Made by a program: the position numbers and the translations under genes | The notes under the pieces: model-generated | What the model saw: only the letters and a program-made list of their open reading frames with translations | What the model was told of the DNA's origin: nothing | Database searches by the model: none | Assembly: GCA_964016885.1 (NCBI GenBank) | Contig: OZ024761.1 | Location: 25,854,001-25,918,000 of the forward strand | Direction: 5' to 3' | DNA from: Eledone cirrhosa | Taxonomy: Eukaryota | DNA: 64,000 nt | In this document: positions 160 through 62,070 of the stretch, piece by piece | How the letters are laid out: the number at the start of each line of letters is the position of its first letter | Numbering within the stretch: position 1 is the first letter of the stretch

Positions 160-507
160 TTGTATGCCCTTTGTGTTTGTGTAGCCTCTGCACACCCTCT
201 GCACCATACTATCGACGCCACCCCATCTATGGTTCAGCTAACCACTCGACTCCCGGGAATGAATATGACCGCAGCTAGTAAACAAGGACCCATACCCCAC
301 CCTCCCGCACCAAAATTAGACTTATCGTCCCCTACTTTTGCTCTTTACTCTCTTTACTATTTGTTCTTGAATGTTTGGTTGGTAGTGTCCATAACACCAA
401 TCAAACCCCTTTTATAGCTCTGACGAATCCTACGGTTACGTAAGGAAGAAACATTGTAAGCCAATAAAAAGCTTTCGATGTTGTAGACGCTCTTGTGTTC
501 TTTATCA
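160..507 (+). mobile_element. Penelope-like element 3' fragment inserted in (TA)n
   Basis: TA repeats on both sides. Reading frame ...QLTTRLPGMN resembles the L.T..P.GLN end of PLE GIY-YIG domains. HHR motif at 417-461, then AATAAA at 463-468. Confidence 0.6.
417..461 (+). ncRNA. Minimal type I hammerhead ribozyme
   Basis: gct-CTGACGA-a-tcctacg(gtta)cgtaagga-a-GAAAC-att-GTA-agc: canonical core, stem II with one bulge, 2-bp stem III, 3-bp stem I. Confidence 0.75.
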
Positions 508-594
508 TATACATATATATATATATCCATGTTGACACATATACAAAATGCATGCCTGACTGATTTCTATCGGGTAGTTATGTAGATAGGTGGT

Positions 595-1190
595 TGTCAA
601 ACTGGTGACCTTTGTAAATGTATGTTATATTTTGGTTTTGTATGGCCACGTGCCTGTGTAAGTAATATTTTCAAACAGGATCTGACACCTACCACAAAGG
701 GGCACGTACAGAGAGAGAGAGAGGGGGTGAGAAAGAGAGAAAGAACGACAGAGAGAGATAGAGTTTGTACACCATTTTCGAGAACGTGCGTTTCACCTAT
801 CGAATTTTCAACCCGAGTGAGGTTGTTCTGAGACCGGAAGTGTATATTGGCATATGATAGTACACGAGTTTATATAATATATTGACCTCTAAAATATTCA
901 GTTACTGCTGTCAGTAAGTGTATTGAATGTAATGTATAGTTTTACTATTGTATCCTTGTCTTGTCTTGTCTTGTCTTGTCTTACACCTGAACATCTCTTA
1001 AAAGTGTGATTAAGTATCGTTGTTCTAGTTCGTTTTCCTTTTATTTATATGCTATACTATTCTGAGTTGTCTAATCGTGTTTCAGAGTATTTATGGTGTC
1101 GAGCCGAAATTGTTTACTATCAAAACACAGCTTATTTTCTAGAGAAAAATAATATGTTGGCCGCTGTCAGTAAACACAGTTTTATTGACA
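595..1190. mobile_element. Possible solo LTR or TIR element
   Basis: Ends tgtcaa(actg)...(cagtttta)ttgaca, i.e. TG..CA inverted termini; no clean TSD seen. Confidence 0.3.
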
Positions 1191-1194
1191 CATG

Positions 1195-2065
1195 GCAAAA
1201 GTCTACCACGCTCTCACTATCTAACCCACTTCATCGAGACCAGAAACAACATTGCCCCTCTCGTTAGAAAGTCCGTGCAATTGGCACGCGAGATAGAAGT
1301 CTGTCGTGCTCTCGGCATCCGGCCCAATTTATCGAGCCAAGGAGCAAGCGTGCCTCTCTCAGTACACAGCCCTTGATATTGGCACGAGACTGTTATGCGT
1401 CGCTCTAAGCATCCAGCCCACTTTATGGAGACCAGGAAGAAGCGTGCCTCGGTCGGTACAGATGTGCAGTTTACTGAGAAAAGCATGCGACAAATATGTG
1501 TCGCCTTCTGCACGCACCCCAATTTATCGACACTAGATAGGTGTGTGGAGCTCTCACATCCACCCCATTATATCAAGAAAAGCCACAAGTGTACCTCTCT
1601 CAGCAATCAGGCCTTGATTTCAGGTCTGCCACAGAAATATGCCACTCTGAGCACACATCCCACTTTATGGACATCAGACAGAATTGTGCCGCTCTTAGCC
1701 TCAACCCCACTATATCAAGATGCAGCACAACTCTGCCGCTCTCAGTTTTATCAACGCGAGTACAAAAGTGTGCGGCTCTCCACACACAGCTCATTTTATT
1801 GAGACAGAAGTGGCTCTCTATCAGAAGACAGCCCACTTTAGCGAAACAAGGCACAATTGTGCCGCTCTCAGTACACAACGCGAGAAATAATGTGTGCCTT
1901 TCTCATCACACAACACACCTTATGGAAACAAAGTCCAGGAGTGCCAACCTTATTTTAAAGCCAAATATATTGAGGCGAGGAAAAAGTGTGCCTCCTTCTG
2001 TACAGACACCGCTTTCATAGAGCCGATACGTAAGAGACTTTCTTTCAGTACACAACCAGCTGTAA
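1195..2065. repeat. Degenerate ~45-47 bp minisatellite
   Basis: Recurring gccgctctcagtacaca...cccactttatcgagac...aagtgt units; explains the overlapping ORFs here. Confidence 0.75.
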
Positions 2066-3404
2066 TGATGTAAGTTTAACTGAACTATGAATGTAAACGC
2101 ACGAGACCAAGTGGTTAGATTGGTAGAATAGTGGTCATAAAATCGTTGTGTTGGTTTCTAGAGAGGGTAGCAAATTAGTTGGTCGGGAAAAATATTCATC
2201 TAACGTGCTGTATCTCCCTCTGCCAAGAGTTGCTTCCAGCATATAATGGAAACAATGGAATGATTAACAGATACAACGTTTCTTTCTTCCGATATGAAAA
2301 TCGGCTAATTTCTTTCCCTTGTCATCGAAAACCTGCAAGGCCTATATGTTTAGTATCTCTATTTAGAGTGCGGCCATTATGAAAAGAGTATTTTGAAATA
2401 TATTATGTATAGCGACAGTAATTACCTCCTCCTGAATATCTGTGAGAATTACATCAATGATACACGTGTCTCTGAAACACTCAGTGACATATAGTTTAAG
2501 GTAACATGTAGGCCGATGCTTTGACCGGGCAACAGAAACGTTCTTCGCCGAAACTTACTAAGGACCGTTTATCTCCGATTCCTAGTAATTAAATCGCAGC
2601 CATGTTGCCTACGGCGTCTGGAGATTTACTCGAGCATATATATCTAAAACTATCGGTCTTTTACTATATTGTACATATATATATATACTTACAGTGAGTG
2701 TGTGTGTGCGTGTGTATCGACATACCACTTTTTCCCTGCATAGATATAGTTATCAAATTGCAAAGTGTAGAAAATAACCTAGGTAGACGTGGGCTGGATT
2801 TTAATCAGAATCAGAGAATATAGAAAGTAGCGTGAGAAAAACTAAATAATGTAATAATGTACACTCTTTAGTCTACGATTCTAAACCTTTTTTCCTCCCC
2901 CCCAATTCTGAAACTATTCATGGATATAAAATGAAAAATATAAATGAAAAAAAATAACGAAAAAAAATAATAGGAAAAATATATCGAATATTAAAAATAT
3001 TGTATTAGGAAATTTCTAGAGAATTTGATAACAAGAATCTATAATGAGAACGGAAATCAAAAATTTATCAACGCAATAGTAGAAATAAAGTATTGACAAG
3101 ATATAAGATATAGAAAAAAAAAAGGATAAGATAGGGTGGAGAGAGAAAGAAAGGACAAGTATATGATTATCAATTCTCGGTTCAAATTGTAGTAAGTTAC
3201 TATAGGAAAACGAAATCCGTAGGGGTTTTTCTTTTATCAAAAGTTATTGATCTACGATTGAAAGGATTCAAGCGATCACAATATAACGTTGTCCGTGGGG
3301 AAAATTGGTCAATTCGCTTATATTTCGAGATGCTGAGATTCTCGAACGTTGCACGCACTTAGACAAATACATTATAGACTTGGACACATACACGAGAGTG
3401 ATAT

Positions 3405-59488: not shown

Positions 59489-60390
59489 ATACATATATAT
59501 ACACATAGGGATGCCCTTCAAGGATGGCCTTACTGGAGAATACGCAGCTTCTTGAAACAACAGTATGTTGAGTTACAATTCCAGAATTTTATATAGCTAC
59601 TACCATTTGCTTACGCTGTATTTGACTAAATGAAATTAGTCTGTTAGTTGAGATTTTTAAAAAAAGCCCTCTTATTGGAAGAAAGCATGAGCGTTGACGT
59701 ACATGGGATACGAACCCACATCTTTGTTTTGCCGTACCAATATTTTAACTAATAGACTCATTTTATTAGACATAAGAAAATGTTACTTGGTATTTTTTTC
59801 AAATCTTCGCTGTTTATAAACAAAATATGCTTTGTATCTCTCTCTCCCCCTCTCTCTTTTATATATATATATACAAACACACACATATGTATATACAAAT
59901 GCACAGGCATGCGTATATATATATATATATATATATATATATATATATAGATGCATGTTTGTGAATATATCTGTGTTTATGTCATTGTGACTTTACACGC
60001 ACCATATCTGTATCCTTTATCCTTCTACCCTTCTATATTTTCTCTCACTATAACAGCTTATATGTGACACATTGTTATCTGGTTTCGTTATAACTATATT
60101 ACCAGAGAAAAACAAGACGCAACATAACGAGACATCAACTACAGCAACAAAGAAAATCAAAACCAAAAAGCAAACATTCATTCCATCACTAAATGTCATG
60201 AAAATGTCAAACGAGCGATTACATTAATTATGCACGTATAAACAAGAGACTTTGTGAAATATTAAGGTAGGGTGTTGGATTAAACTGCAGTAAATAGGAG
60301 AAAACGATTAAACGATTGTAGAACAGTTTAAGTATTTTGATTTATTTGTACATGTATATATATATATATATATATATACATATACATATA

Positions 60391-60862
60391 TGGCCTTTTG
60401 ATTAATAAAAGGCCTCGGGCGCACCCGTACTACACCGATGTCCTGTAATTCAGCGCCGAAACATCGATTCGGGATATTTTACAGCTGACGATGGAAACAC
60501 CTTTCTTCCTTTCTCCTCCTGTTCCGTCCTAACCACCATCCTAAACCTTCTTTTTAGTAACCACACAGCTCCTTTCGTTTCGTAACTTTATATATATATA
60601 TATATACATACACACTTATATGTAGAAGTAAATATATATATATATATATATATATATATATATAAAGTTACGAAACGAAAGGAGCTGTGTGGTTACTAAA
60701 AAGAAGGTTTAGGATGGTGGTTAGGACGGAACAGGAGGAGAAAGGAAGAAAGGTGTTTCCATCGTCAGCTGTAAAATATCCCGAACCGATGTTTCGGCGC
60801 TGAATTACAGGACATCGGTGTAGTTCGGGTGCGCCCGAGGCCTTTTATTAATCAAAAGGCCA
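60391..60862. mobile_element. Inverted duplication of a ~200-bp element around a TA spacer
   Basis: Arms 60391-60590 and 60663-60862 differ at 2 positions by eye; contain HHR parts. Confidence 0.85.
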
Positions 60863-61432
60863 TATATGTATATGTATATATATATATATATATATATATA
60901 TATATATATATATATATATATATATATATATATACTAATAATAATAATACAAGTACAATTTGTTAAGCCTTTATCACTTTTATTGATTGGTGACGCGCGT
61001 TTCGCTAAAGGTTCGAGCAGTAACGATATTAGCCGAGTCTGGAATCAAAAGCACATGGGACCTCTGCTGTTTAGCGGTACAGCTCGCCAATGACTTGAAC
61101 CTACACTCGAGTGCTCACCTGGATGAACCTATCTATCGGTCGCAAATCCTGGAAGGTGGAATCTAAATCGCAACCTCACAATTACGAATCCAGTTCTCTA
61201 ACCATTCACCCACACATCATGTATATAAATAGCCATCCAACCACTTAAAATGTTTCTAATATTCTGACATTTCACACCTCTTACTTTGCATGTTACATAC
61301 ACCACTCTTACTTCCATATACATCATTATCACTGACGTACATCTGAATTGTAAATGTTAAAAAATTAAATAAAATTCGGTCGTATAACCCCGTCGTAACT
61401 ACTTTAAAATGTATATATATATATATATATAT

Positions 61433-61642
61433 AACGAAGGAAATGTGGTAAGGAACCAGGTGGACCATAACGCACCAAAGTACTCAATACTTAGGGTAGT
61501 AGAGTAGGTAATAGGAACGAGTAGGACCCCGACGGCTGAGCTCAAGCCGTTTCGACGGCTAATTCTGGACTAAAAACATTTTTTAGTCAAGAATTAGCCG
61601 TCGAAACGGCTTGAGCTCAGCCATCGGGCTCCTACTCGTTGC
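61433..61642 (-). mobile_element. Fold-back element family E
   Basis: Same body, spacer aaaaacattttt. Confidence 0.8.
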
Positions 61643-62070
61643 TATATATATATATATATATATATATATATATATATATATATATATATATATATATATA
61701 TAATAGTAGAACAGTGGAGGGTTATATCTGTAGTAGTAGCGCAATGAGTCGATGGGACGAGTTTGGTAGAAGTAGTTCCACAACAGTTAGTTTACCATAC
61801 GGGAACAAATGTTTCCCCTTACGCGGATACCTAGCTGAGAATCCGCGCATAATCGCTCCACATAATGATGTATTGTCTTCGCTTTTTTCCGTTTATTGCC
61901 AGGGAACGTCTTCATGAAGCAAAGTATCGTCTTCCTGTTTTCCTTCGGTTGCAACGTTTTTCGAAATATTTACTTCTGCGTTCGCAGATTGATTTTCTTT
62001 TAGCTTCAGAAGATCCTGTTAAGGGTGAAAGCAGCGATTCTTTGCTTATATTAATAAATGTATATATAGG

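Follow-up and report, generated by a model that had tools for sequence, protein, structure and literature searches.

The window considered here is a stretch of 64,000 nucleotides from the Eledone cirrhosa genome (contig OZ024761.1, positions 25,854,001 to 25,918,000), and it contains numerous short islands that carry all or part of a hammerhead ribozyme. Mapping of family references back to the window resolves about 24 islands of about 15 families, so that the eight loci named in an earlier note on this DNA were an undercount. We conclude with high confidence that the islands are mostly 5'-truncated, often inverted 3' ends (pseudo-long terminal repeats, or pseudo-LTRs) of many families of Hydra-clade Penelope-like elements (PLEs), lying in (TA)n, and that they carry a type I hammerhead fold whose cleavage is predicted to be slow and to depend, in all likelihood, on dimer formation or on the element protein. 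Seven of the eight originally named loci belong to repeat families, the exception being 35358. The earlier note assigned the ordered core CUGANGA...GAAA...NUH to all of them, and this holds in part: the CUGANGA half is present in five (417, 11057, 15635, 32737, and 35358) and the whole canonical core in four, as 11057 has GGAA, whereas 5520, 31811, and 6595 differ. Most islands in the window lack half of the ribozyme or have lesions in its core or stems.

One island is the Hydra PLE 3' end of family F417 (77..513, + strand). Its hammerhead (417-461) proceeds from the core CTGACGA at 420 through stem II, GAAA, CATTG, UA, and a 3-bp stem I, with cleavage predicted after 458 and an AATAAA (463-468) 4 nucleotides past that site. 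This layout is near-uniform across 30 copies of about 98% identity. The F15635 island (15478..16003, - strand) includes a complete hammerhead (15636-15689) with core CTGAAGA at 15684 and stem III TATATA, although G10.1 is replaced by A, and an inverted piece at 15733-15825. F6595 is represented by an inverted pair of ends (6467..6757, both strands) in which the U4C core CCGATGA occurs at +6601 and -6556; the hammerhead at 6595 has an 8-bp stem I. The F5520 copy (5453..5713, - strand; hammerhead 5520-5612) has the core TTGATAA at 5607. This U3-A8 covariant form is the commonest core among 30 aligned copies, but the stem III palindrome of the window copy is broken (CTGAAG in place of the family's CTGCAG). 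The same TTGATAA is found at 31811 in F31811 (31552..32039, + strand), followed by GAAA at 31831, a CCGG palindrome, and a foldback in the 3' part. These UUGAUAA cores and the CCGAUGA core of 6595 are family traits and not decay.

Other islands are more damaged. The F62035 copy (61854..62048, + strand) has a U4A core, CAGAAGA, at 62007-62013 and has lost the 3' strand of stem I; a second copy at 57334-57422 is a foldback. The F61435 foldback pair (61435..61640) and its sister copies (24262-24468, 29849-30053, 30220-30346, and 59059-59224) make up five hairpins that keep just the 3' half of the ribozyme. In the F11057 end (11019..11379, + strand; core at 11065) the first core half is canonical, GAAA has become GGAA, and a SINE-like (short interspersed element-like) repeat inserted at 11113-11228 interrupts the TATATA stem III, while a second copy (32035..32117, + strand) is truncated in stem II. 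F32737 is a decayed copy (32737..32846, + strand; core at 32743) with an intact relative in locus L212. F32399, which is absent from the earlier note (32194..32476, - strand; core at 32399), has GAAG for GAAA and retains stems I and III; intact relatives are present in locus L239. The remaining members are a foldback 3' end without a ribozyme core (F14520, 14520..14690; sister copy 28906-29055), an inverted pair truncated inside stem II (F15300, 15281..15457), a decayed copy of F57460 (57490..57577, - strand) with a 3'-only sister (58928-59012, + strand), and a ribozyme-less piece of a retrozyme-like family with 420- to 476-bp tandem units (24515..24700, - strand).

The 35358 locus (35358..35427, + strand) is a duplication of a 33-nucleotide unit with two CTGATGA...GAAAC motifs. 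Both cores are canonical, but the second unit is without stem I, and a genome search matched only the locus itself. This single-copy locus is not bounded by TA, and its status as a ribozyme is unconfirmed. Decayed-looking CTGA.GA...GAA motifs also occur on the - strand at 19282, 54058, 55912 and 56086 (about 174 bp apart), and 28664; these have one relative or none in the fetched DNA, no genome-wide search having been made for them. A family with GAAA-CGCGCG-TC and AATAAA, which has foldback copies, is present at 5091-5225 (+ strand) and 60962-61066 (- strand), and the 5' core is absent in the six copies inspected. A large foldback with a TA-rich center (60395-60860) has a single relative (locus L316), and no hammerhead was recognized in it; it was not searched for genome-wide.

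Ribozyme fold and genome-wide abundance

The window is 28% GC, includes TA, GT, and GA microsatellites as well as 200 N bases, and is occupied by a degenerate 13.5-kb (TA)n array at 37443-50903. The sequence on either side of 37501-50800 was read by eye, and all 64 kb were scanned with three type I descriptors. The first, a strict one, gave 3 matches versus a mean of 0.3 (maximum 2) in 30 local dinucleotide shuffles, the second gave 3 versus none in 98 of 100 shuffles, and the third gave 2 versus none in 56 of 60. By itself the window is modestly enriched, and the case rests on family and genome data. A hammerhead is absent among the best 150 of 555 Rfam matches to the window, which are mostly TA and foldback microRNA artefacts. 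Minimum-energy folds of individual window copies often fail to give the hammerhead shape, as expected for a 2-bp stem III, and such single-copy folds were kept out of the evidence.

A much clearer excess is seen in 59 evenly placed 10-kb stretches that were picked blind (589.8 kb, about 0.02% of the 2,996-Mb assembly). Here the strict descriptor recovers 49 hammerheads, whereas 12 shuffles gave 0-2; a single tandem array with 468-bp units accounts for 19 of the 49, and the other 30 are dispersed. Dispersed hammerheads thus occur about once per 20 kb, or roughly 150,000 times in the genome, a rough extrapolation from matches that are clustered. When positions 3, 4, and 8 are left free there are 73 matches versus 8-10 in shuffles, and 51 of the 73 have C3-U4-G8. 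Among 1.78 Mb of fetched DNA, 29 ribozyme clusters recur in at least two loci; we judge about 25 to be real and four to be low-complexity noise. The diverse, high-copy radiation that had been proposed is supported.

The canonical core CUGANGA...GAAA...UH is present in most families, and the U3-A8 core in five clusters of the 1.78 Mb. Nearly all families have a palindrome or hairpin as stem III, even though the descriptor demanded its first pair alone, in agreement with the minimal type I hammerheads originally described. G5, A6, A9, and GAAA are fixed by the descriptors, so their conservation is seen only in families collected by flank. One such family is F11057, whose alignment of 29 copies comprises the window copy and 28 selected by 3' flank with a loose core filter. 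CUGA and GA are invariant in it, N7 varies, and the only deviation from GAAA is the window copy's GGAA. Its stems are paired in 94.9% of cells with 32 double-sided changes, a level reached in 0 of 500 shuffles, and the stems of the tandem family are paired in 96.5%, reached in 4 of 500, by a shuffle control that ignores relatedness. Within the limits of that control, these helices appear to have undergone compensatory change.

Genome searches, in which 40 candidates were scored per family, returned first-look candidates whose totals are not copy numbers: 1,539 for F417, 770 for F5520 (about 82% identity), 1,443 for F6595, 1,780 for F15635, and 855 for F31811 (95-99% identity).

Parent elements and insertion ends

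Five families (F417, F6595, F15635, and two that are not among the loci listed in the earlier note, F61435 and F62035) have an open reading frame (ORF) for a reverse transcriptase (RT) and a GIY-YIG endonuclease that precedes the ribozyme and shares its strand. The link to Penelope-like elements foreseen in the earlier note is supported, but the islands are not independent mini-elements of a new kind; these five window families are traced to Hydra-clade parents. The islands appear unrelated in their flanks but not in their parent proteins, which are 33-51% identical to one another, with the F6595 protein set apart from the other four. The ORF is linked in 6 of 6 long loci for F62035, 7 of 7 for F61435, and 3 of 5 for F6595; as long loci were chosen for holding two spaced copies, these fractions are not population rates. 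F417 copies form nested 5' truncations that share 436-4,126 bp and lead into the ORF in 3 of 14 loci. This ORF lies 2.3 kb upstream of the ribozyme, with RT and endonuclease in loci L324 and L320 and the endonuclease part in L326. Other ORFs near F417 in loci L076 and L118 were rejected as its parents, belonging as they do to other families.

A relative of F15635 in locus L031 has the order inverted end, end, RT ORF, long AT-rich untranslated region (UTR), end, (TA)n, and inverted end. In this locus and in L112 and L313, pseudo-LTRs with a tail lie as partial tandem and inverted copies. Intact F15635 ORFs of 893-894 amino acids, with YRDD and VYG...YIG, occur in loci L112 and L113, and a search with the RT gave 34,735 first-look candidates. 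The 3' UTRs of the F15635 and F417 parents are 1.4-2.3 kb long. An endonuclease-less family, suggested by locus L031, was rejected on finding a full endonuclease in other copies.

The aligned parent ORFs have RW(K/R), DKT, CxCx5C, CxxC, and CxH, and lack CCHH. Each Hydra motif is found in 103-118 of 120 homologues. In all, 402 homologues were retrieved; those listed are mostly annotated HTH_animal, and neighboring atlas clusters have RVT_1 and GIY-YIG. Hydra-like coding DNA accounts for 6,929 of the 589,800 sampled bases (1.2%). PLE-type RT or endonuclease ORFs unlike the Hydra ones were also seen, near F6595 and F61435 copies (L314:5554-6942, L307:682-1563, and L142).

Copies have fixed 3' ends that join (TA)n and variable 5' ends. 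Four families have two such 3' ends, at about +98 and +20 in F61435, about +158 and +64 in F15635, +112 and +40 or 42 in F6595, and about +113 and +29 in F62035, with the longer on the direct arm and the shorter typically on the inverted arm. (TA)n follows the long end in 45 of 50 copies of F61435, 23 of 27 of F62035, 14 of 19 of F6595, and 33 of 52 of F417, and most copies of F6595, F417, and F15635 without it continue into the element's own downstream sequence. The (TA)n targeting proposed in the earlier note is thus supported. In tandem copies, the sequence beyond the long end is TATCTAGCTCC in F15635 and F61435, TATACAGCTCC in F6595, TATACGGCTCT in F417, and TAAATAGCTCT in F5520. A TA-nnn-(A/G)GCTC motif just past the main insertion end is common to these five families and is a candidate start-site signal.

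On their 5' side, copies extend across the site of predicted cleavage. Their 5' ends accumulate about 35-48 nucleotides upstream of it in F61435 (-37 to -45 in 31 of 55 flank copies) and F62035 (16 of 54 at -31 to -50, compared with 5 of 54 within 5 nucleotides of the site). Insertions that start at the cleavage site were considered and rejected, since a pile-up near 0 in F62035 was due to TA repeats in the reference and vanished with a clean one; the 5'-end data for F117 and F57460, whose references were spoiled in the same way, were dropped.

We infer that the islands and foldbacks arise by twin priming at a TA tract, followed by premature termination. The element protein would bind its own RNA and nick both strands of the tract, and reverse transcription would be primed at two positions within the RNA that lie 3' of the ribozyme. 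The two cDNAs would mostly stop early, often within the ribozyme helices, and their head-to-head joining would produce islands of 150-500 bp as well as foldbacks. As copies read through the hammerhead site, the templates were presumably uncleaved there or re-ligated. The same structures could also form if one cDNA snapped back on itself.

Comparison with known elements and rival explanations

The motif set of the parent ORFs is that of a PLE group with a C-terminal endonuclease, the Hydra clade (Craig et al. 2021, PMC8557442), for which the available parts of the paper describe RWK, DKT, a CxCx5C linker, no CCHH, and CxxC and CxH around the endonuclease. Shared too are (TA)n targets, a type I hammerhead near the 3' end that is often mismatched at the base of stem II, and inverted truncated copies. 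Hydra-1_Obim of Octopus bimaculoides prefers (TA)n and has a canonical hammerhead (PMC8557442, supplement S1/S2). Those parts of the paper list a single octopus family, and elements shorter than about 3 kb that have canonical cores, whereas E. cirrhosa has about 25 ribozyme families, long 3' UTRs, fixed variant cores, and more than one percent of Hydra-like coding DNA. The islands also resemble the minimal metazoan PLE hammerheads described by Cervera and de la Peña (2014, PMC4209133). In the text available, a genome has many families of these, diverse in sequence; the ribozymes are mostly single and derive from truncated PLEs, pairs on opposite strands are separated by 100-700 bp, and stem III is palindromic. 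An extra base after A9 is likewise described there, as is, in Schistosoma, the U3-A8 variant. Counts there are in the thousands (up to about 9,000), and U4A, U4C, or C3·A8 families are not named in that text. An in vitro study of the anole Poseidon PLE (Frangieh et al. 2024, PMC11167929) reports a protein that nicks its target on both strands and extends them, starting at two internal positions, with uncleaved RNA as template. The two starts with a tail between them, the both-strand extension, the AT-rich target, and presumably the uncleaved template are common to both systems, but Poseidon is of another clade, has a ribozyme that overlaps the start of its ORF, and has tails of 30-40 nucleotides versus 70-95 here.

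Several results weigh against the derivation of the islands from Hydra-type parents or against their hammerhead fold. In all 12 inspected copies of F31811 the adjacent stem I is absent, so three helices are not formed. The number of pairs with a double-sided change is no better than in shuffles for F11057 (269 of 500) or the tandem family (496 of 500), so that the covariation anticipated for the stems holds for the paired fraction and not for this count. With one core mismatch permitted, the window has 20 matches versus 7-17 in shuffles, and hence no enrichment. F6595 has no ORF link in 2 of 5 long loci, none was found among the copies in fetched loci for F5520, F11057, F31811, F32737, and several others, and one L031 copy is without the endonuclease part. 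No family passed in a Pfam scan of the parent ORFs, and a Protein Data Bank search with the parent proteins gave no match. The short Hydra-1_oBim hammerhead motif is absent from the fetched loci. Membership in the Hydra clade rests on motifs, as the protein tree, with 26 rows and 20 of the 120 homologues, is without named Hydra references.

A rival view, which we consider unlikely, is that most islands are non-autonomous retrozymes in their own right, which hammerhead cleavage and ligation would turn into small, mobile circular RNAs. Tandem units do exist: one locus (L250:459-9028) has 19 ribozymes at about 468-bp spacing, and arrays of 420 and 476 bp are found in L114 and L115. Each unit of this ORF-less family has an intact hammerhead with stem III CTAG, as in a retrozyme-like satellite. 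F5520 has a tandem dimer with a unit of about 475-478 bp and is probably of the same kind. Such arrays are similar to the tandem 150- to 450-bp units with type I hammerheads of non-LTR retrozymes, of which the axolotl has up to 120,000, according to the text available (PMC7229834; bioRxiv 10.64898/2026.07.22.740005), and read-through of the cleavage site is compatible with a ligated circle. Also in favor of this view, animal retrozymes are described as PLE derivatives in the second source. Here, however, tandem arrangement without an ORF is confined to a minority of families; the five ORF-linked families show nested truncations into a full ORF and variable unit length. On the explanation favored here, the families for which no ORF was found (F5520, the 468-bp tandem family, and perhaps F11057 and F31811) are likely retrozyme-like and non-autonomous, and are carried along by the enzymes of the Hydra-type elements. 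That the hairpin islands are instead miniature inverted-repeat transposable elements or foldback DNA transposons with incidental ribozyme motifs is scarcely credible. Many are near-perfect palindromes with TA flanks, but their arms are unequal, they have two fixed outer ends, their centers vary between copies, and the same sequence occurs as the 3' end of an RT-coding element; for F61435, F62035, and F6595 the idea is contradicted.

Equally far-fetched, in our view, is the idea that AT-rich sequence has produced the motifs by chance. The lack of enrichment just mentioned would fit, as would the failure to find relatives of 35358 genome-wide and of 19282, 54058, 55912, and 56086 in fetched DNA. 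The excess in the blind sample, the invariant core with a free N7, and U3-A8 covariation in separate families argue otherwise, and for the families chance is refuted; 35358 and the orphan motifs may be chance matches. The earlier note further proposed that insertion may turn TA tracts into self-cleaving RNA sites. This is not supported, and functional sites in host transcripts are improbable: intact-looking dispersed ribozymes occur about once per 20 kb, and some copies presumably lie in introns or UTRs, but most window copies are truncated or mutated. Minimal PLE hammerheads did not cleave detectably in vitro as monomers and had weak activity as dimers (PMC4209133), while the anole ribozyme required its protein for cleavage and no reads ended at its site (PMC11167929). 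Truncated 3' ends of Hydra-clade elements therefore remain the explanation that we favor for most islands.

Several other sequences were observed in the window. SINE-like repeats are abundant (for example, 5240-5420, 6790-7000, 23040-23225, 36400-36820, and 54685-54900). A tRNA match above the Rfam gathering score (37.3 bits) lies at 56875-56946, immediately past a TA run, and a similar sequence occurs at about 59690-59750 (- strand). A TA-adjacent repeat at 11405-11600 and 46583-46684 is 96-99% identical to other loci and looks like the 3' end of a LINE-type (long interspersed element) retrotransposon. By eye, there is a possible gene start at about 12920 (AAAATGGCGG) and a possible exon at 51590-51760; if these are real, many islands are intronic.

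Variant ribozyme cores

Some families have been amplified with altered cores. F62035 (U4A) has 10,555 exact 28-mer matches, and A4 is present in 100 of the 100 listed, all of which are from the start of C1. Exact copies of F6595 number 296, with C4 in 268, T4 in 26, and G4 in 2; four of eight T4 loci inspected share another change, which suggests a small canonical subfamily. F61435 has 1,479 exact full-core copies, and a hand count of the 100 listed gives about 52 with U3-A8 and 48 with C3·A8. A further subfamily with a U3-A8 core has GCAA for GAAA in all 7 copies inspected, at 5 loci (L089, L119, L134, L163, and L169). As far as the sources available state, the U3-A8 variant was previously seen in Schistosoma PLEs (PMC4209133), U4C was recorded in a viroid and is far less active in vitro (PMC3088659), and every CUGA single mutant was low in activity in a pairwise mutation scan (PMC9901934). 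The literature searched, which did not extend to most subscription papers or Repbase, contains no account of this PLE radiation, of families amplified with fixed U4A, U4C, or C3·A8 cores, or of the TA-nnn-(A/G)GCTC motif past the insertion end. In the accessible text of an octopus repeat annotation (PMC13282606), neither "ribozyme" nor "Hydra" occurs.

The spread of very large families with altered cores makes it likely, judging from sequence, that fast self-cleavage is not needed for copying. More tentatively, and as a possibility we take seriously without favoring it, these families may amount to a natural mutational series in which the fold of PLE hammerheads is retained and their catalysis is weak or dispensable. 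Separate autonomous Hydra lineages with U4A, U4C, or C3·A8 cores would have reached copy numbers in the hundreds or above 10,000, and other families would have been amplified with A13C in the core or without stem I. The RTs would start beside TA-nnn-(A/G)GCTC and tend to stall in the ribozyme helices, and the ribozyme would be mainly a structure for the ribonucleoprotein or for positioning the RT. Counting against this idea, most families retain the canonical core and stems, which indicates that cleavage is usually under selection. Also, because the core changes are mostly at positions known to be tolerant, residual, dimer-assisted, or protein-assisted cleavage may suffice.

The kind of element described here is already known; what appears new, within the literature searched, are additional members, families with fixed variant cores, and a shared motif past the insertion end. 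The reason why PLEs carry hammerheads is debated, with precursor trimming, circle formation, and mere parasitism among the proposals in the literature available. Young families with near-intact ORFs, in which fixed variant cores occur alongside canonical ones, make the role of these ribozymes directly testable, and the variant-core series is the part most worth bench work. The number of dispersed hammerheads, together with about 1% of Hydra coding DNA, suggests that many short, TA-flanked repeats classified as "unknown", SINEs, or miniature inverted-repeat elements in such genomes are the ends of PLEs, which bears on how repeats are annotated.

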